Positions 22,880-59,749 of a stretch of DNA of 64,000 nucleotides are shown here, one piece after another; positions within the stretch are counted from its first letter, which is position 1, and each line of letters starts with the position of its first letter. The notes beneath the pieces are model-generated. The model was not told the DNA's origin and ran no database searches. It worked only from the letters and a program-made list of their open reading frames with translations. The stretch is taken from IMG/VR virus record IMGVR_UViG_3300042260_000337; one strand, given 5' to 3'. The translations under genes and the position numbers were made by a program. Source of the stretch: a virus (lineage: Duplodnaviria; Caudoviricetes).

Positions 22880-23158
22880 CTATGAGGTTATTTCTTTGAT
22901 CCATTCTTCGTATCCGATTTCAAACGGGCGAATAGGAAATGATAGTGTCCAAGTTGATTGAGCATCAATTGTTTCCCCGCCAAACTGCATATGAAGATAT
23001 ACGATGCCTTTTTTGGGAATCCATTCAAACTCTACAGGGTCAATGGTTGATTTGTAAAACTCATTGCTGCATATTTTACGAGCGATGGATATCAACTCTT
23101 TTGGTTTGAACTTTGGCTGATATGATTGTTTGGGAAATTTTGGTTTGTATGGTAACAT
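22880..23158 (-). CDS. hypothetical protein
   Basis: 92-aa ORF ending in TAG. Confidence 0.55.
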   Translation of the reverse strand: MLPYKPKFPKQSYQPKFKPKELISIARKICSNEFYKSTIDPVEFEWIPKKGIVYLHMQFGGETIDAQSTWTLSFPIRPFEIGYEEWIKEITS

Positions 23159-27368: not shown

Positions 27369-27459
27369 TCTAATCTAAATAGGTGTCCATTTAGAGTTTG
27401 GACAAACTTGGGGCTTCAAAAGCCACTCCACCACTTGCTTTTACAAAAGCAAGAAAATA

Positions 27460-27533
27460 TGGCGACCGATACGGGACTCGAACCCGTTTTACCTGGTAGA
27501 CAGCCAAGTGTAATACCCATATACCAATCGGCC
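27460..27533 (-). tRNA. trnD: tRNA-Asp(GUC)
   Basis: cloverleaf, G73, loop CUGUCUA, CCA. Confidence 0.9.
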
Positions 27534-27540
27534 AAACGGT

Positions 27541-27717
27541 TTAGCGTTTGTTGGTTGCTACGTCACGAATGACTTCAAGTGCTTCTTCAAGTGAAAGAAC
27601 AACTACCTTAGCAGATGCCCATTCTTCATTGTCATCGTATCCACGATATTCAATGATATATCCATTGTCTGCGAAGGCAATAGACATATCTTCTACTTTG
27701 TTTGTTACTTCTGCCAT
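27541..27717 (-). CDS. hypothetical acidic protein
   Basis: start MAEVTNK with AGAGG SD. Confidence 0.65.
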   Translation of the reverse strand: MAEVTNKVEDMSIAFADNGYIIEYRGYDDNEEWASAKVVVLSLEEALEVIRDVATNKR

Positions 27718-27827
27718 TGTTTCCTCTAAAGTTAATATGAGTGGCATTCCACCACTCCGTCAGGTTTGAGCACACGAGTCTCGGCTTCAGACTTCCCGAA
27801 TCCTTACGGCAAAAATACAGTTCACAG

Positions 27828-28523
27828 TTACGGGCTTTCACTCCCTGTATTCTTTTCTTTGGTCCACTGAACTATTGGATTTAAGTCTTTACCAGCCAGG
27901 GAATCTCTATTCAACTTATTTTCATAAGTGAGGGAAATCGGGCTTAAATCCTCATTAAAAAAGTGTTTACTCGTTACTTTAATCCACTCATTGAACTCTT
28001 CATCGTTTTCATACACAATCTTGTTGTGCGAAAACTTGTTACTAAACATACTCTGAACTGGTTCGTATCTAAACATACCCAACAAGAACTTTGCTTGATT
28101 GATTGCGTGTTCTTGTCTTCCGTATCTTTCGCCGTATACGGAATAGTAAGACTTTCCGCAGTCGGAACAAGTTACATATTTCTTTCTGAGTAAGTCTGAT
28201 ATTGACAGATTATACCAAAACTTTTCAATCTTGTCAAATCTTTTTCCTTGTAGAAATGCTAACGCAATCGTCAACGATCTATATTCTTGTGCAAGATAGT
28301 GATGTTTATTATTCAGGCAAGCAGCTACACCTTCGTGTCTTATACCTAACTTAGCAAGGTAATGGCCACCTTTGTTATCACTTCCAAGTTTGTGTCCATG
28401 TTCGCGTTGGTATTTGTGACCAGTTTTGTAATAGCCGCTTCTATCTTTTTTGAGTTCTTTGATTGATTTTTCCAAGAACTCTTTTCTATGTTGCAGTTTG
28501 ATTTTGGTTTCGTCAATATTCAT
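27828..28523 (-). CDS. hypothetical protein
   Basis: 231-aa ORF, ATGA coupling to the upstream gene. Confidence 0.7.
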   Translation of the reverse strand: MNIDETKIKLQHRKEFLEKSIKELKKDRSGYYKTGHKYQREHGHKLGSDNKGGHYLAKLGIRHEGVAACLNNKHHYLAQEYRSLTIALAFLQGKRFDKIEKFWYNLSISDLLRKKYVTCSDCGKSYYSVYGERYGRQEHAINQAKFLLGMFRYEPVQSMFSNKFSHNKIVYENDEEFNEWIKVTSKHFFNEDLSPISLTYENKLNRDSLAGKDLNPIVQWTKEKNTGSESP

Positions 28524-28780
28524 TTGTCTTCTCCATTTTGAATCAAAGCCTCATTGGACTCTGTAATACTAAGGTAACAGTTCTTGATTTTAATCGCACC
28601 TTTTGTGTGCGGGTTGTCAGGTGTTTCCTTAGTAGACCACCCTACTTCTGATATGACATGATTAACATAAAAGGTTTGACCTTTTGCTTTAACCACCCAC
28701 ATTGGAATAGTCGGGTCTTCAAGATGTTTTTTGTTGAAGTGAAATACTAACTCGTTGACTTTTGTTTTTTCAATCTACAT
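28520..28780 (-). CDS. conserved small phage protein with in-frame UAG at codon 2 (M*IEKTKVNELVFHFNKKHLEDPTIPMWVVKAKG...)
   Basis: AGAAAGGA SD-ATG(28778-80)-TAG(28775-77), then 84 sense codons in frame with track ORF 28520..28702, whose own ATG lacks an SD. Confidence 0.65.
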
Positions 28781-28889
28781 AGTTTATCCTTTCTGATTGA
28801 GTAGGTTACTGACGATCTAAATGGGTATTGGCGTTAGCCGCAGGGTTTCAGGTTCCTACTCGCTACTACAAACCCTTTTTCGCTTTATT

Positions 28890-28966
28890 TGGTGGCCCTA
28901 GTGGGACTCGAACCCACGACCAATAGTTTTAGGGACTGCCGCTCTAACCAACTGAGCTACAGGGCC
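28890..28966 (-). tRNA. amber-suppressor tRNA (anticodon CUA)
   Basis: GGCCCUG/UAGGGCC acceptor, GCUC/GAGC D stem, GUGGG-UUCGAGU-CCCAC T arm, A73-CCA; anticodon loop CCCUAAA (atypical C33, one C-A mismatch in the stem). Confidence 0.8.
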
Positions 28967-28974
28967 AATATGAA

Positions 28975-29240
28975 TGAGTGTTTACCCTATCGTTGCTCGG
29001 TATTCATTATGGTAAGTAATGAAATCCCAAGCTATTGTCGGAAGCGTTTGACCTCCACGGTTCATTTGGATACCACCTCGCATTACTTCGCGGTGTTACT
29101 GCCACACTCAGAGGATACATTGATTTCAAGTCCTATACGACCACAATAGAGGCTCTTGCGAGTAGTCTACCGTCTAACCATATAGTGTTCTGCGCGTCTT
29201 TCCAATCCAACCAAGATAAACCCCGTTGGCGGTAGGAACT
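28975..29240 (-). ncRNA. unassigned ~260-nt structured RNA candidate
   Basis: no credible ORF; CUC-GCAA-GAG tetraloop, long-range CUAUUGU/ACAAUAG stem, GC-richer than its surroundings. Confidence 0.5.
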
Positions 29241-29274
29241 CAATGTATCGTCAAAATGTGATTTCATTTTGTCA

Positions 29275-30119
29275 AGGCTGAGATTATACCTTGAGGTGAG
29301 TGCCTTCGGTCATTACCCAATCCCTTGCGAGGATGGTTCTACCTTTATCCACAAGAGTCGTTTCCGATCATCTTGTATCACTCAATGCGGCCTTTGTTAG
29401 AGAGTGGCATTTCTCTCGTCGCATACTGCTATTCATCCTTCCATCTTCCGCCAGCCTTGCGGGCTGTTCAAGGTCGCTAAACCCTTACGTCTTCTGTCCG
29501 AATAATCACGTCCACCTTGCGAGTTTCAGTGAACCATATTCTCTTGCGAGTATGGTATTACGCATCTTTCACAGTATACCGAGGTAGTCTTTCGCTTTTG
29601 TTTCAATAATAGGAGTTGAACCTACAATCGTTCTCTTAGAAGGAGACTGCATTACCATTATGCAATATTGCGAACCTATTTCGATGTGCTACCTCAGTTG
29701 CACCATACCTTGTTAGATACAGTATACAACACACCGACTGTCTTTTGCCTTGCGGGCTACTCAACGTCTTTTCAAGTATCCGGGGCCTAACCCTTCCACT
29801 CTCAAGATGCTACTACGCCTTTCCTTGCAGGGTCAGACAGTGTAGCTACCTGTTAACCTTCAGTATTCGTTAGTTTGGCTGAAAACTGTTCGGACGCCAA
29901 TCCTCTTACCACTCACCGACTGGCTCTGTGGCTATCCTTTCAGACAGTTCTCCTAACTTACTACCTACCGCCTCTCTACAGACGGGACTTGCTTTCGGTT
30001 TAATCCGAGTCAAGTCTGGTTCAGGCTTGTATAGATGGACCATCACTGGCGCAAGTTTATAGGAAACCTTGCTTTGGGCGTATTACTACGCTTACCCTTA
30101 TGGACGCTATACCGCCCAA
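29275..30119 (-). ncRNA. GOLLD-like giant ornate ncRNA (~845 nt)
   Basis: own promoter TTGACT-17-TAGGAT (30127-30155); five or more C-GCAA-G tetraloop hairpins; 3' end ...CUCAAGGUAUAAUCUCAGCCU; sits in a phage tRNA cluster and carries an internal tRNA, as known for GOLLD. Confidence 0.72.
29601..29672 (-). tRNA. tRNA-Arg(UCU)-like domain embedded in the GOLLD-like RNA (probably degenerate)
   Basis: GCAU/AUGC D stem, loop CUUCUAA, GUAGG-UUCAACU-CCUAU T arm; top two acceptor pairs mismatched, no CCA. Confidence 0.6.
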
Positions 30120-44290: not shown

Positions 44291-45025
44291 TCACTTTAGT
44301 TCGTCAATCAACACTGCTCGTTTTACTGAAAGGACCATATCTCCACCGATCATGGCCAAGTAACTTGCGGTTTGTTCATCGTCACATGCAACCGCTAATG
44401 TAGAGTATTGCCAATATCGTCGTTTATCTACCTCTGCAAGATTTGGAGATATGTAGATATTTTCCAATGAAGAAGCCATTTCTCTGAATGAAACCACTTC
44501 TTTAAGATCGACATCGCGACCAGCGATCATCGTAATCTTATAACGATGACGCTCATAATACAAACATTTTCTTACTTCTTCGGTTACGGAAAGTTTTGAC
44601 TTTACTTCGTCATAATCTTCAAATGCTGGCTCACATTCATCTATTGCAAACTCCCTGTAGTTTGCAAAGTTTTTAATTTGCTCATACAGTTCTTTTGACG
44701 TTATATAGATCAACGTATGGATAGAGTCATTGCGAACTTTGATTTCACCCTTGTTTGTCTGTGAAAGTTTTTCTATTTGGTCATGTAATCCTAATCTACG
44801 CGCCAATTCATCTTCTGTTGAAGGGTAATGTCGAACTGTAAAATGAGCACTATATCCAAAACTTCTGTTTTTTTCCGAAGTCATCGTTGATGGATTTAGG
44901 GCGTATTCCAAATATTTGTCATAAAAGTTGAATATAAGTTTAGTTCGTATTCTAAACTTATACTTCTTGTAAAATGGCTTTGTAACGATTTCTTTTTTGA
45001 TTCGTTTATACTTAAACATACTCAA
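44291..45025 (-). CDS. hypothetical protein
   Basis: 244-aa ORF overlapping the clpA stop. Confidence 0.7.
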   Translation of the reverse strand: MSMFKYKRIKKEIVTKPFYKKYKFRIRTKLIFNFYDKYLEYALNPSTMTSEKNRSFGYSAHFTVRHYPSTEDELARRLGLHDQIEKLSQTNKGEIKVRNDSIHTLIYITSKELYEQIKNFANYREFAIDECEPAFEDYDEVKSKLSVTEEVRKCLYYERHRYKITMIAGRDVDLKEVVSFREMASSLENIYISPNLAEVDKRRYWQYSTLAVACDDEQTASYLAMIGGDMVLSVKRAVLIDELK

Positions 45026-47231
45026 ATGTCAATCCTTCCTCATTCACTGAAACATTTACTGTTCCGCCATTGACAAGCCGACCAAACAAAATCTCTTTTG
45101 AGATTGGCTTCTTGATGCTGTCATGAACAACCCGCTGTAGAGGACGTGCGCCCATGTTTGGCTGATATCCCTTATCGCAAACCCAAGACCTTGCTTCGTC
45201 ACTGAGCACAATTTTGATATTCTTTTCTTCAAGCATGGTGTTTAGTTCTTTTACTGCCTTGTCAACAATCATTAGAATATGGTCTTTGTCCAGATTTTTG
45301 AACTCAACCACTGCATCAAGGCGGTTACGAAACTCAGGAGAGAAGAACTTCTCAATCGCAATCTTACTTGCATCATCGTTGCTGTTGCTAAATCCAATCG
45401 CTTGCTTTGAGCGTTGTGCAGCACCAAGGTTAGAAGTCATAATAAGAATGACGTTACTGAAATCAGCAGTCTTACCAGTTGAAGAAGTCAACTTGCCATC
45501 ATCCATAACTTGAAGAAGAAGGTTCATAACACTTGGATGTGCCTTTTCAACTTCGTCAAGAAGAACAATGCAGTTTGGAGTTTCTTCAACTTCATTGATG
45601 AGTTTACCAGAACCAACTCCACCTTCAGCATGTCCGACATAACCAGGAGGTGCGCCAATCAGTTTTGATACTGAATGGGATTCCATATATTCTGACATGT
45701 CATACTTACGCAGCTTGACATTCAGGTTGTCAGCAAGTTGACGACATACTTCTGTCTTACCAGTTCCAGTTGGTCCAACAAACAGGAACGAACCGACTGG
45801 TTTATTTCGTGGTCGCATACCAGCTTTAGCAACAAAGATTGCATCGGTCAATTGTTGAACTGCCGTATCTTGTCCAAAGATTTTTGACTTGATATTATCT
45901 TCTAGCTTTTCGTAATTGGTGTTCTGTTTTGCATCAATCATATCAAGAGAGATATTCGCAATTTTTGAAATTGCTTTGCGAATTTCATCATCGGTGATAC
46001 GGTCAGTAGTCTTATGCAGCTTTGCTTGTGCGCCCGCTACGTCAATAACGTCAATAGCACGGTCTGGGTTGAACCTGTTGAAGATGTATCGTTCTGCCAA
46101 GTCAACGGCTAAGTCAAGAGCACTATCATCATACGATACATTATGAAATGCCTCGTAGTATTCGCGCAACCCACGAAGGATTAGCTTAGTGTCGGCATTG
46201 CTTGGTTGGTCAATATTCAGACGCTGGAAACGGCGCTGTAGAGCACGATCCTTTTCAAAGTTCTCACGGTATTCTTCACTGGTAGTTGCACCAATACAGT
46301 GCAGCTTTCCACTTGCCAACAATGGTTTTAGAAGGTTTGCAATGTCAATGTTAGACCCGCCAGCATTACCAGCGCCCATAATCATATGGATTTCGTCAAT
46401 AAACAGAATTGCGTTGTCTTTTTTGGCAAGTTGGTCAAACACAATCTTGGCACGTTCTTCAAACTCGCCACGATATTTGGTTCCCGCAACCATTGCAGTC
46501 ACGTCAAGTGAATAGACAACCTTGTCTTCTAGGGTGTGCGGAACTGTTCCTTCCACAATCATAAGGGCAAGACCTTCTGCGATTGCAGTTTTACCAACCC
46601 CTGGTTCGCCAACAATAATGACATTGTTCTTCTTGCGACGAGCAAGAACTTCTGCAACTTCTGTAAGTTCACGAGTGCGGCCAACGATTGGGTCAATTAG
46701 ACCTTCTGATGCTTGGCGGTTTAGGTTGGTGCAGAAGTCTTCAAAGCGAATTTGTTGATTTCCACCACCTGAAGCACCCTGTGGAGATAGACCAGCCGCC
46801 GCATTGTGTTCATTTGTAATAATTTCAATTGCTTTGTTGCGGTCTGCACCATGCTTCTTCAATACGAAGTATGCATAGGAGTTCTTTTCACTCAGTAAAG
46901 AAATAAAGATATCTTTGCATACCAGTTTTGTGCTACCAGAGAAGATAGCTTGTGTCACAGCACGGTTGAATACGCGGTCAAGGGCAAGTGTTTTTCTTGG
47001 TTCATGCCCATTTGCATTTGGAATGTCATCGCGTTCACGCAAAAAGGTTTCAAGGTCTGAAACGATAGAACCAACATCTACTCGCATCTTATTGAGGAAG
47101 GCTATTACATCATCTTCTTCCAGAATTGAATAGAGAAGGTGTTCCAAAGTCACGTATTCATGTGCAAGTGCGGTCGCTTTTTGAATTGCACGTTCAATGG
47201 AAAGATTTACACGGTCAGGTTGGTTGCTCAT
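45012..47231 (-). CDS. clpA: ClpA-type Hsp100 AAA+ chaperone
   Basis: Clp N-domain HEYVTLEHLL; two Walker A (GEPGVGKT, GPTGTGKT), Walker B LFIDEIH and LLDEVEKAH; 739 aa with no ClpB M-domain. Confidence 0.92.
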   Translation of the reverse strand: MSNQPDRVNLSIERAIQKATALAHEYVTLEHLLYSILEEDDVIAFLNKMRVDVGSIVSDLETFLRERDDIPNANGHEPRKTLALDRVFNRAVTQAIFSGSTKLVCKDIFISLLSEKNSYAYFVLKKHGADRNKAIEIITNEHNAAAGLSPQGASGGGNQQIRFEDFCTNLNRQASEGLIDPIVGRTRELTEVAEVLARRKKNNVIIVGEPGVGKTAIAEGLALMIVEGTVPHTLEDKVVYSLDVTAMVAGTKYRGEFEERAKIVFDQLAKKDNAILFIDEIHMIMGAGNAGGSNIDIANLLKPLLASGKLHCIGATTSEEYRENFEKDRALQRRFQRLNIDQPSNADTKLILRGLREYYEAFHNVSYDDSALDLAVDLAERYIFNRFNPDRAIDVIDVAGAQAKLHKTTDRITDDEIRKAISKIANISLDMIDAKQNTNYEKLEDNIKSKIFGQDTAVQQLTDAIFVAKAGMRPRNKPVGSFLFVGPTGTGKTEVCRQLADNLNVKLRKYDMSEYMESHSVSKLIGAPPGYVGHAEGGVGSGKLINEVEETPNCIVLLDEVEKAHPSVMNLLLQVMDDGKLTSSTGKTADFSNVILIMTSNLGAAQRSKQAIGFSNSNDDASKIAIEKFFSPEFRNRLDAVVEFKNLDKDHILMIVDKAVKELNTMLEEKNIKIVLSDEARSWVCDKGYQPNMGARPLQRVVHDSIKKPISKEILFGRLVNGGTVNVSVNEEGLTFEYV

Positions 47232-56722: not shown

Positions 56723-56914
56723 TTATTTTGTTAGCAATTCAAATACGTCATCTGGTAGAACACCGTTGTGTTTTCCTAACAGTGACACAGTTTTGACCGC
56801 AGCAAGTTTCTTGTTACGTTCATCATTTGCTTTCCATACAGCAGCCATCCAAGTAACATACTCTTTTGACGAAGTATCAAACAGGTCTTTTGGGATTGGA
56901 GGAAAATCACTCAT
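56723..56914 (-). CDS. hypothetical protein
   Basis: 63-aa ORF overlapping the NAMPT stop. Confidence 0.55.
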   Translation of the reverse strand: MSDFPPIPKDLFDTSSKEYVTWMAAVWKANDERNKKLAAVKTVSLLGKHNGVLPDDVFELLTK

Positions 56915-58325
56915 AGCGAGACACCATTTCAGTTTCAGGGTTCACAACCGCACGTTCACGGATTGCTTCAAACGTATCTTCAAGAAGAAGGTCACCGTTT
57001 TCATATACAACCCGAAGAACTTTGTCTTCTTCACGAGCGTTCTTTTCTTCTACGGTTCGGAACCCGCAGCTTCCAATTCCACATTCGTGAACCAGTTCAA
57101 GGCGACCTTTCTTAGAAAGTTTACCTTTATCAGTGATTGGGTCTTTGTAAACATCAACCCAAACCCCATTCACAAGTGCAGCAGAACACTTCATCGCAAA
57201 CTTCTGGTCATCGCGTTGTGGAGCGCCAAGTAGAGCGCCACCCATACCAAATGCAACGTTGTCGGCACAGAAACCATTTGCTTTCAGGCTTTCAAGAATA
57301 GCTTTGACACTATCCGAATTGATGCCATCACCTTGAATGATACGAACATGATTTAGAAGTTTGTAACCTTTTGCGTTTACAGTTGAACCAAAAGTTTTGT
57401 CCAACAGTTTTGCAACTTTTGTCACAACTTCAACTGGGTCACCAGAGTCGGGACGGACAACAAGAGTTGCGCCAGACTTGATTACTTCTTCGCGAAGTTC
57501 ACCACCCCATAGATTTTCAACAGCGTTGAAAATATCATAGCTGTCAGAAACAACAGCAAGGATTGACCCAGGTTTAGCGAACTGTTTCAGCATATTTTTG
57601 TATGCTTTGACTTCGTTTTCGCGACCCCAAGAAGTAATGGTGCTATGTTCAGCAGCAGGAATAGAGAACCCTGCCATTGGCATTTTGTAGTAGCGTTTTG
57701 CACCAACTACAGCAGCAATAGTGTCAGTCCCCATAAAGCTGACCAAGTGAGCCATGCCGCCAAGAGTGGCAGACTCATGCGAAGATGTTCCTCGCGCACC
57801 GAAGTCGTGTAGTTTGAAGTTGAGTCCAGCAAGATCGCCGCCAGTTTCAACCATGAACTTCTGAATGATTTTCTTGATTTCACGGCTGGTTGTGGCAACA
57901 GTGGTTGGATACCAGATTGCACGAAGCAATGCAGTTTCCAAGTAGGTGGTCAACCAGAAACACTTTGGATCGGTGTTTTCAACAGTAACCATTGCGTTGT
58001 GAACAGGAATCACAGTCCCTTCGGGCGCAGCTTTGATGCGAATAGGAAGTTTCCCGCCAAGTTCCTTGACGATGTATTCCCAACCTTCACGATTGAATGG
58101 TTCCCCATGGCCAGTCCAGATTTCTTCTGCTTCATCCACATCTGCCATCGTGATTGGTTCAAGCAGATACTCTTTGATGAACGCTTGTAGTCCGAAGAAC
58201 ACAAGTTCATTGTATTTTCCGCCACGGCTTTCAATGTAGCTGAATACAGTTTCTGTATTTTCAGGGTATTGAACGAACATTGACGCTTTGTAGCTGTCGG
58301 TATTTAGTAGTAGATTGCTTTTCAT
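56907..58325 (-). CDS. nadV: nicotinamide phosphoribosyltransferase (NAMPT)
   Basis: TDSYKAS, LHDFGARG, IPAAEHSTITSWG, VSDSYD, VRPDSGDP, IIQGDGI, FGMGGALL, KFAMK. Confidence 0.95.
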   Translation of the reverse strand: MKSNLLLNTDSYKASMFVQYPENTETVFSYIESRGGKYNELVFFGLQAFIKEYLLEPITMADVDEAEEIWTGHGEPFNREGWEYIVKELGGKLPIRIKAAPEGTVIPVHNAMVTVENTDPKCFWLTTYLETALLRAIWYPTTVATTSREIKKIIQKFMVETGGDLAGLNFKLHDFGARGTSSHESATLGGMAHLVSFMGTDTIAAVVGAKRYYKMPMAGFSIPAAEHSTITSWGRENEVKAYKNMLKQFAKPGSILAVVSDSYDIFNAVENLWGGELREEVIKSGATLVVRPDSGDPVEVVTKVAKLLDKTFGSTVNAKGYKLLNHVRIIQGDGINSDSVKAILESLKANGFCADNVAFGMGGALLGAPQRDDQKFAMKCSAALVNGVWVDVYKDPITDKGKLSKKGRLELVHECGIGSCGFRTVEEKNAREEDKVLRVVYENGDLLLEDTFEAIRERAVVNPETEMVSRYE

Positions 58326-58409: not shown

Positions 58410-58721
58410 TTATGCAGCGGCTGGTCTGGATTCTTGCCATTCTTTTGTCCACCTTGGCAATTCACGATACCCAACAGGCCAATCATTTAGCCCAATATCA
58501 GTTAGTTTGCCGCAGCATGGACACTTGAATGATACGGCTGGTTCTTTTGTAAATATACCCCACCCCTCACCAGTTCCCTGATAATAACGAAGGTCATCGA
58601 ACTCAAGTTCAAGCAATGCTTCGCATCCATTTTCGCCATTGCCCCATCCAGTGCATCGATGTTGCAGTGACCAAGTATTTTTTCCGTTTTTTCCCGCTTC
58701 AAGAATCTTCATTTTGCTCAC
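58410..58721 (-). CDS. hypothetical Zn-ribbon protein
   Basis: C...C and CPCC. Confidence 0.6.
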   Translation of the reverse strand: MSKMKILEAGKNGKNTWSLQHRCTGWGNGENGCEALLELEFDDLRYYQGTGEGWGIFTKEPAVSFKCPCCGKLTDIGLNDWPVGYRELPRWTKEWQESRPAAA

Positions 58722-59749
58722 CCAATGTTGATAAAGTTGTCGATGATGTGGAAGTGATCTTCAAACATCTTTTCTTGCTTCACGTCTTTGAACGGAACCC
58801 AGAACGCTTTTTCGGCATCATCCGAACCTTTCACTTTCGGCAGTTCACCAACGCCCAAATCAATGTGAAATGCTTGGGTAATGGTGCGACCACGAGACGA
58901 ACGATTAGGAGCATCAAAAGTCTTGGAACCCTTGATAGAACCTTTCAGCACTGGGACAGGAACCTTGATTTTGGTTTCTTCTTTCAGTTCACGAATGGCA
59001 CCATCCAGCATAGTCTCATCTTGGTTCAGGAAACCGCCAGGGAGCGCCCATTGGCCCTTGCCAGGCATGTCACCACGCTTGACCAGTAGGATGTGTCCAG
59101 ACTGCACTACAACGGCGTCTACGGTCATAAAAGTGGGCGGGAAAGGTGCAGCCTTCCATGCTTCTTTATACTTCTTGACCATGTTGTATTCTTGCTCAAT
59201 AACTTTCCACTGAGCAGATGCAGATAGAAAAATGTCAAGCATCCTGCTTCTAGCAGCATCAGGCATCAAAGTTTTGAGATTCTCTAGCGTGTTACTATTA
59301 ACTTCAAACAAAGATTTACGAATGTCAGTTGCGTTGATACCACCAACATCATCAACTTCAATATGATTCTTCCAACGTGGAAAGATGTTCAGGTAGTAGC
59401 TAGTGCTGTCTTTTGAATGGCCAATCAGACCAACATCTTGTGCATTCGGGACAGTAGCATCAACAATCTTTTGAATGGCGTTGACCCATTTGTTGTCGTC
59501 ATATGGGTAATCTGACACAGGAACGACCTTCACACGAGTCGTGCGTTCAGTCTTACCTGGCGGATACACGGCTTCAATCATAGCCTTGCGTTCTTGGAAT
59601 GTAAATGGATTTCGGATATTACGAGCAGCGAAGCTGGAACCTACGACTACAACAACTTCATGTGCTTGTTCAAGTGCAGCATCAATAACTGCTTTGTGTC
59701 CATTGTGAAACGGCTGGAACCGACCGATAAAAACGAGTGCGTCTCGCAT
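58718..59749 (-). CDS. nadM: bifunctional NMN adenylyltransferase/Nudix hydrolase
   Basis: GRFQPFHNGH, RNPFTFQER, INATDIR; Nudix GQWALPGGFL...GAIRELKEET; GSDDA. Confidence 0.93.
   Translation of the reverse strand: MRDALVFIGRFQPFHNGHKAVIDAALEQAHEVVVVVGSSFAARNIRNPFTFQERKAMIEAVYPPGKTERTTRVKVVPVSDYPYDDNKWVNAIQKIVDATVPNAQDVGLIGHSKDSTSYYLNIFPRWKNHIEVDDVGGINATDIRKSLFEVNSNTLENLKTLMPDAARSRMLDIFLSASAQWKVIEQEYNMVKKYKEAWKAAPFPPTFMTVDAVVVQSGHILLVKRGDMPGKGQWALPGGFLNQDETMLDGAIRELKEETKIKVPVPVLKGSIKGSKTFDAPNRSSRGRTITQAFHIDLGVGELPKVKGSDDAEKAFWVPFKDVKQEKMFEDHFHIIDNFINIG

Follow-up and report, generated by a model that had tools for sequence, protein, structure and literature searches.

The 64,000-nt stretch of DNA considered here, referred to as the window, is part of a 102,689-bp virus record in IMG/VR (IMGVR_UViG_3300042260_000337), the completeness of which is about 27% according to CheckV. 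The record, that of a large tailed phage, has genes for a family-B DNA polymerase, for virion proteins, for a Lon-like protease and for NAD salvage. On the minus strand of the window, a tRNA gene with the amber-suppressor anticodon CUA lies upstream of a small gene that is interrupted at its second codon by an in-frame TAG. The small gene is called the client gene in what follows, and its early TAG the gate. A first-pass annotation of the window saw in this arrangement either a local, leaky readthrough switch, in which a weak suppressor licenses one gene, or an early stage of UAG reassignment. Comparison with related loci indicates that the TAG is probably a programmed gate, dependent on the suppressor tRNA of the phage.

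The suppressor tRNA

The amber-suppressor-type tRNA occupies positions 28890..28966 (minus strand). ARAGORN calls a 77-nt tRNA with the anticodon cta at exactly this place, and the Rfam tRNA model scores it at 60.6 bits, compared to a gathering score of 29. Direct reading bears out the other details given in the first-pass annotation: a cloverleaf with an encoded CCA end, C rather than U at position 33, and one stem mismatch. The anticodon loop reads CCCUAAA, and the mismatch (C.A) is in the anticodon stem. The discriminator base is A73, and A36-A37-A38 is present. Among the tRNAs of the same record the closest paralogue is a tRNA-Lys(UUU), with 77% identity. A73 and this similarity would be consistent with charging by lysyl- or glutaminyl-tRNA synthetase (LysRS or GlnRS).

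The label given by ARAGORN, tRNA-Pyl, was rejected. PylS (TIGR02367) had no match in the 102.7-kb record, itself only about 27% complete, and the label therefore merely restates the anticodon. Genuine tRNA-Pyl has an atypical architecture, with a tiny D-loop, a 3-nt variable loop and a 6-bp anticodon stem. In the tRNA of the window the D-loop is ordinary and contains GG, the variable loop measures 5 nt, the anticodon stem has 5 bp, and the T-loop is GTTCGA.

The client gene and its leader

The 3' end of the tRNA is separated from the start codon of the client gene by 109 nt, which refines an earlier estimate of about 110 nt. Most of this distance is taken up by a moderately structured spacer (28795..28889, minus strand; fold z-score -2.06). 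It is followed on the same strand by a Shine-Dalgarno (SD) sequence, AGAAAGGA, at 28787..28794, which ends 6 nt before the ATG at 28778..28780; an SD-led start of this kind is also found in related loci. The in-frame TAG is codon 2 (28775..28777), and is followed by ATT (28772..28774) and GAA. As the first-pass annotation had stated, the frame remains open for 84 codons past the TAG, to a TGA at 28522-28520. The client gene thus comprises 86 codons (28520..28780, minus strand), and is supported as a gene by its translation, its conservation and an AlphaFold model.

There is no terminator-like site anywhere in 27400-29800. No promoter-like site was seen in the spacer, the nearest being weak 9/12 matches over the start of the open reading frame (ORF). 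Since the spacer has neither kind of site, the tRNA and the client gene are likely to be co-transcribed. The spacer is nearly identical among close relatives. It opens with a conserved hairpin (AAAGGGUUU ... GAAACCCU; 28795-28880, minus strand), which is shared by a distant relative, L165, upstream of its position 2213. Because it is found in so distant a relative, the hairpin may be a processing or stability element.

The client gene is followed by an ORF of 231 aa (27828..28523, minus strand), and this pair of genes is kept in close relatives. The ATG of the 231-aa ORF overlaps the TGA of the client gene in the sequence ATGA, for which reason the ORF is probably translationally coupled to the client gene, and would in that case be gated indirectly. 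The idea that it is a detached form of the C-terminal domain found in longer homologues of the client was rejected for lack of similarity.

Conservation of the TAG

When IMG/VR was searched with the read-through protein, 244 related stretches were found; a search with protein P0152 gave no matches there. The protein database holds 344 clusters of the client family at 90% identity, or 157 at 50% identity. Conservation of the gate was judged on 88 distinct gene sequences. The TAG is present at one alignment position, corresponding to codon 2-7, in 82 of the 88, in an invariable order: SD sequence, ATG, zero to five codons, TAG. The SD sequence is as a rule 5-9 nt from the ATG, and the TAG is followed, at a distance of 7-14 codons, by the invariant motif FHFN(K)KHLED. 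The first-pass annotation had raised the question of whether codon 2 would prove to be a conserved TAG that co-occurs with a CUA tRNA. The alignment answers the first part, and such a tRNA accompanies the gate in at least 42 of 52 loci, as described below.

Every gated homologue has TAG as its gate, and no member of the client family gated by TGA was seen. The codon preceding the gate is of 19 kinds. The base that follows it is A in 75 of 82 sequences; in 62 of the 82 the whole codon after the gate is ATT. The gated client proteins have diverged to about 60-75% identity. In alignments A1 and A2 the protein is conserved without a break from the TAG to the first internal Met (M27), and both the FHFNKKHLED motif and the first strand of the predicted fold sit between the TAG and the next ATG. 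Many loci offer no in-frame start codon (ATG, GTG or TTG) in the stretch from the TAG to the motif. Gene callers cut the client gene short or miss it; in many records only a 60-aa piece is called, and the window is among them, the ORF caller having taken the internal ATG (28702) as the start. As a control, 505 kb of related loci were scanned for an SD-led ATG followed by no more than seven codons, a stop and at least 60 open codons; this gave 85 matches with TAG, 11 with TGA and 3 with TAA. Exactly one TAG gate is present in the 102,689-bp record that includes the window.

A bare in-frame stop, and nothing more, could be the product of an assembly error or of a recent nonsense mutation in a decaying gene. 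Eight contigs (L164, L168-L174), which come from other samples in JGI, ENA and Logan, encode client proteins 85-97% identical to that of the window. All of them keep ATG TAG ATT, and the CCCUAAA loop is also kept in all eight, the tRNA of L164 being cut off at the end of the contig. Assembly error is excluded, because these independent contigs have preserved both the TAG and the loop. Considering that the TAG is shared in addition by 82 distinct homologues, and that the protein sequence downstream of it is strongly conserved, the probability of an artefact or of a gene in decay is negligible.

The frequency of ATT after the TAG has to be considered in another light. ATT can serve as an initiation codon, as in infC, and start-stop elements are known regulators. 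The ATG and TAG could thus form a minimal start-stop ORF, with the protein starting at the ATT (Ile) or by 70S re-initiation, and the tRNA would be present for other reasons. Any stop codon would serve this purpose, yet the gate is TAG in all gated homologues, and the same bias is evident in the control scan. The codon following the TAG may also be AAC, GTT, CAC, AAG or ACT, among others, and the TAG may be as many as seven codons from the SD-led ATG. Re-initiation also leaves the linkage to the tRNA unexplained, and the gate becomes TGA precisely where the suppressor of the phage has the anticodon UCA, as described in a later section. It is, for these reasons, quite improbable.

Homologues in the databases that begin with M-Q-I-E appear to have Gln at the position of the gate. 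This assignment was rejected. The contigs that encode these proteins can be translated only with TAG read as Q, and the Q is there because gene callers read the codon in this way; it is therefore no evidence for Gln. A public protein collection holds such versions of the client (P0002 and P0018; L164 and L165), which mimic intact homologues with Q and could mislead attempts to deduce the inserted residue.

Linkage to CUA tRNAs

Linkage was tested on 52 distinct gated loci with flanks of 10 kb. ARAGORN found a tRNA(cta) in 38 of them, always on the same strand as the gene, and in 40 of 41 cases the CUA tRNA is upstream, starting 97-3151 nt before the TAG. Four further CUA tRNAs, in L185, L199 and L175 and, in one case, 50 kb away in the record, bring the number to at least 42 of 52 loci. 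ARAGORN missed or mislabelled those at L185:9222-9300 and L199:9604-9678, which have degenerate D-arms, and that at L175:9723-9799, which has a 6-nt loop (CCCUAA) and resembles the C33 tRNA of the window. Counts of phage suppressor tRNAs are therefore underestimates.

In several loci the CCA end of the tRNA is within a few bases of the SD sequence of the client gene. The CUA tRNA is the sole tRNA in approximately 20 kb at 43 of 80 loci. A total of 514 tRNAs was found in client loci, of which 61 have the anticodon CUA, and none has UCA or UUA. No other conserved neighbour was detected: the most frequent gene besides the tRNA is present in 16 of 55 loci, and PTH2 genes, discussed below, are confined as neighbours to jumbo-phage loci and a few others. 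The arrangement is also found in a cultured phage. In Rhizobium phage RHph_I1_18 the client gene is present, unannotated, with the beginning ATG AGT GAG TTC ATG TAG AAC, so that the TAG is codon 6; a tRNA(cta) starts 12 nt after the client stop codon.

The 64 distinct CUA tRNAs obtained from these loci are widely divergent in sequence. The cloverleaf has been kept: of its 18 predicted stem pairs, 16 show compensatory changes. The loop reads YUCUAA(A/C/U), with an invariant YUCUAA core across the set of related tRNAs. U33 is present in 63 of 64, C33 being peculiar to the clade of the window, and A73 in 57 of 64.

It could be argued that the UAG is read through by tRNAs of the host, and that the phage tRNA(CUA) is mainly for another job, such as that of a decoy for anticodon nucleases or the readthrough of host genes. 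The C33 and mismatched stem of the tRNA in the window, the gated loci with no CUA tRNA within 10 kb, and a published search in which no targets of phage CUA suppressors were found (PMC5852040) would be in keeping with this. That search, in phage XacN1, covered C-terminal extensions only. The tight, co-oriented linkage of the tRNA to the client gene, its frequent occurrence as the only tRNA in 20 kb, and the covariation of the gate codon with the anticodon make dependence on host tRNAs unlikely.

Covariation of gate and anticodon

In the jumbo phages Phosso and Atu_ph07 the client domain makes up the C-terminal half of a protein that has about 175 aa and is not gated. Its gene is two genes downstream of that for a PTH2 peptidyl-tRNA hydrolase, and the starts and stops of the three genes overlap. 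Here it is PTH2 that is gated. The PTH2 of Phosso begins M-K-Y-TAG-V-E-E (Pfam PTH2, E 3e-20), and that of Atu_ph07 begins M-I-G-E-H-F-TGA-I-N-Y, with no in-frame start codon between the stop and the conserved N-terminal strand. Phosso has two tRNA(CUA), one of them approximately 5 kb upstream on the same strand, and no UCA tRNA was found in it by a pattern search. In Atu_ph07 the same searches revealed a tRNA(UCA) and no CUA tRNA, in agreement with the published description of this phage, which lists UCA as the only suppressor (PMC6102473).

The same correspondence is seen in IMG/VR. In eight jumbo-phage loci the PTH2 gene begins with M-L-T-N-S-F-L-TAG, or with a sequence close to it, and the only tRNA in 20 kb is a tRNA(CUA). 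Two others have M-(N/K)-H-L-D-H-R-TGA and a tRNA(UCA) as their only tRNA. With two more loci in which TAG is paired with CUA, the total is ten TAG/CUA and two TGA/UCA, and no mismatched pair of gate codon and anticodon was found among the jumbo-phage PTH2 loci examined. Like the anatomy of the locus, the conservation of the TAG and the linkage to the tRNA, this covariation was observed directly. It is the strongest evidence that the gate would be decoded by the suppressor of the phage itself, and that selection would keep the gating as such.

Gating is not limited to jumbo-phage PTH2. In L027 and L029, where the client gene has no TAG, PTH2-like genes near the tRNA are gated. Amber-gated homing endonucleases of the NUMOD3 or HNH_3 type lie directly upstream of the client gene at L030:2311-2976, L051:2293-2976 and L042:2208-2970. 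The NUMOD3-type genes, in L030 and L051, carry a client-like leader, M-x-TAG-I-E-Y, as if the 5' end of the client gene had been copied.

Retention of the standard genetic code

TAG is the stop codon of 12 of the 70 ORFs in the window with at least 120 aa, and of 30 of the 161 ORFs in the 102-kb record with at least 100 aa. It is not enriched in this record as an interrupter of ORFs. The first-pass annotation had named three positions at which TAG terminates genes. That at 273 was upheld; those at 22880 and 34551 were not confirmed as real gene ends. In four relatives (L017, L019, L037 and L044) the gated gene itself ends in TAG. With a single gate in 102 kb, and with TAG in continued use as a terminator, the phage has not been recoded to code 15.

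Recoded phages, crAss-like and other gut phages in which TAG encodes Gln (code 15), carry suppressor tRNAs (PMC9523058, PMC7886860). The present phages resemble them in having a tRNA(CUA) and reading frames with an internal TAG, the expression of which would depend on that tRNA. In code-15 phages TAG is found across many genes, especially late ones, and seldom serves to terminate them. The genomes considered here have one or two clients each, the stop is always within the first eight codons, and TAG continues to terminate elsewhere. The client could nevertheless be thought of as one TAG-bearing gene of a partly recoded lineage, a relic or an onset of reassignment, given that suppressor tRNAs are typical of recoded phages and that some gene callers chose TAG=Q for contigs with the client gene. 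The single gate, the use of TAG as a terminator in the window and at the end of the gated gene itself, and the restriction of the early TAG to one homologous N-terminal position speak against it. The position has been maintained across lineages diverged to about 60% protein identity. The earlier suggestion of a beginning UAG reassignment thus finds no support, and this explanation is very unlikely.

The client protein family

The client family has been named FHFNKKHLED after its conserved motif. No family in Pfam, PHROG or NCBIfam matches the client protein. The domain is about 80 aa long, beta-rich and strongly conserved; in an alignment of 99 sequences 11 columns are invariant and 17 nearly so. 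AlphaFold models (predicted local distance difference test score, pLDDT, 86; 88.9 for the protein of the window) place strand 1 at residues 3-16. The middle part, P.W..KG.TYYVNH..W..P, is WW-like. The strands modelled at 28-32, 35-39 and 41-44 were compared with the motif W..G..YY.NH..W..P in the three-stranded sheet of WW domains. The Pfam WW model (PF00397) gives 11.3 bits, which is below its gathering score of 26.9; the family profile matches NEDD4L with an E value of 0.0015 and a protein with six WW repeats with an E value of 1e-9.

Three architectures are found. The domain may stand alone, as in the window; it may be followed by a C-terminal ferredoxin-like domain and an acidic tail; or, in jumbo phages, it may be preceded by an N-terminal extension, helical and about 100 aa in length. 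For the C-terminal domain of the long form, VIA-align gave Z 5.5 to generic ferredoxin-like, ACT or RRM folds. Foldseek gave no matches in the PDB, and a search of the ESM Atlas gave no usable match. AFDB clusters, BFVD and the Atlas contributed only uncharacterized proteins, mostly viral in BFVD and the Atlas, and no telling domain fusions were seen among 157 family clusters.

The family has no consistent genomic partner besides the suppressor tRNA and, in some lineages, PTH2. Because its recurrent partners are a tRNA and, in jumbo phages, a similarly gated PTH2, the client most likely acts on translation, with the ribosome, tRNA or peptidyl-tRNA as its target. Perhaps it buffers side-effects of stop-codon readthrough.

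Proposed mechanism

The following scheme would account for these observations. The phage would make tRNA(CUA), probably from a transcript shared with the client gene. Ribosomes starting at the SD-led ATG would meet the UAG at once, and without decoding by the tRNA only Met would be made. If the UAG were decoded by the phage tRNA, the 86-aa protein would be formed, and probably also the product of the overlapping 231-aa ORF. The TAG would be kept by selection as a regulatory gate and not as a coding position. It stands ahead of the folded part of the protein, and any residue inserted there should be tolerated. According to Bossi's context rule, a UAG-A context favours suppression, and the UAG-A(UU) context of the gate would be expected to do so. 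In support of a gate, an ATT directly after the stop is also found in gated genes of unrelated kinds, those of PTH2 and of homing endonucleases. Expression of the client would in this way be tied to the amount and activity of the suppressor, and this tie might act as a licence, as a timer, or as a read-out of the strength of UAG suppression. From the comparative evidence we infer the readthrough, the charging of the tRNA, the identity of the inserted residue and the function of the protein.

Several observations weigh against the suppressor-dependent gate. The tRNA of the window may be a poor decoder on account of its C33 and mismatched anticodon stem. In ten of the 52 gated loci no CUA tRNA lies within 10 kb. 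Each of these ten is a fragment; completeness according to CheckV, looked up for five of them, is 6-75%. Four homologues without the gate still keep a CUA tRNA, so that the link between protein and tRNA is independent of the gate. TAG ends approximately 11% of the long ORFs in these phages, and signs of adaptation at TAG terminators, in the form of back-up stops or avoidance of A as the next base, were looked for and none was seen; a strong suppressor should therefore be costly. The proposed role of the client protein received no help from a wide search with VIA-align, in which the N-terminal domain reached Z <=3.5 at best, the top rows being halves of ADP-ribosyltransferases, which were taken as noise.

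The alternatives discussed in the preceding sections, namely re-initiation, decoding by host tRNAs, recoding and artefact, all fit the data worse than a gate that depends on the suppressor tRNA of the phage. The local readthrough switch suggested in the first-pass annotation is supported by the conservation of the TAG, its linkage to the tRNA, and the covariation of gate and anticodon in the sister PTH2 genes.

A more speculative extension may be offered tentatively. The tRNA(CUA) and the early UAG could together form a self-contained sensor of UAG suppression, in which the level and charging of the suppressor are set against release factor 1 (RF1). Its output would be a proportional amount of translation-care proteins, the WW-like client and, in relatives, PTH2, which would deal with side-effects of readthrough or tune it. 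If true, decoding would be subject to a natural feed-forward or feedback loop, and the presence of suppressor tRNAs in phages with a standard code would be accounted for.

Other features of the phage genome

The record contains 37 tRNA genes, 17 of which are in the window. Two odd tRNAs called by ARAGORN lie outside the window (G000:C1:848-944 and 2695-2784): a 'Tyr' tRNA with the anticodon ATA and a 'Ser' tRNA with the anticodon ACT. A GOLLD RNA is present at 29275-29737 (minus strand), where Rfam RF02032 is matched over the full model length with 193 bits, compared to a gathering score of 150. The GOLLD RNA belongs to the same tRNA island as the suppressor tRNA and lies about 300 nt upstream of the latter; a tRNA-Arg(UCU) gene (29600-29672) is nested within the GOLLD sequence.

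Inside the 231-aa ORF there is a perfect sigma-70 consensus promoter at 28209-28237 (minus strand), with TTGACA, a spacing of 17 nt, TATAAT and the TG element (12/12). It is directed at a downstream 68-aa ORF and a tRNA-Asp. At 45012-47231, 56907-58325 and 58718-59749 (minus strand) the window encodes a Lon-like ATP-dependent protease (phrog_4871, E 8e-257) and an NAD-salvage pair, which consists of a nicotinamide phosphoribosyltransferase and a nicotinamide mononucleotide (NMN) adenylyltransferase/Nudix protein. No PTH2 gene was found in the 102.7-kb record.

Relation to known systems

Suppressor tRNAs with the anticodon CUA or UCA have been reported in a number of phages that use the standard code, including XacN1 (PMC5852040), Summit (PMC9022506) and Atu_ph07 (PMC6102473). 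The likeness to the present phages lies in a CUA or UCA tRNA without recoding, and Atu_ph07 is among the genomes analyzed here. No target has been identified in these papers. For XacN1, targets were sought only as C-terminal extensions, and none was found (PMC5852040); the abstract on Summit says of the targets that they 'are not identified' (PMC9022506). The N-terminal gate in conserved genes is a candidate target. Synthetic circuits gated by amber codons have been built with suppressor tRNAs (PMC11669171, PMC6412442). They are similar in that a UAG near the start of a gene forms an AND gate with the suppressor; they are engineered, whereas the cassette described here is natural and is conserved across hundreds of phage loci. 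No published description of such an N-terminal gate module was found in full-text literature searches.

The gene for release factor 2, prfB, is autoregulated through an early in-frame UGA, at which a +1 frameshift senses RF2, its own product. There too an early in-frame stop pits termination against an alternative form of decoding, and provides a built-in sensor of decoding capacity. The difference is that decoding at the phage gate is proposed to be in frame and by a dedicated tRNA. The client family with its suppressor tRNA would combine known kinds of element, a phage suppressor tRNA and the programmed decoding of a stop codon.

The pairing of tRNA(CUA) with a TAG-gated gene recurs in about 80 distinct phage loci. 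It offers a concrete and testable target for the orphan suppressors of standard-code phages, in the form of a conserved gene family, present in about 250 IMG/VR stretches, that is fully translatable only through an early UAG. The loci also supply a diverse set of about 64 natural amber-suppressor tRNAs, each of which comes with its natural reporter context. If confirmed, the pairing would be a natural counterpart of the synthetic amber-gated circuits, and would join prfB as the second case in which an early in-frame stop serves for regulation.

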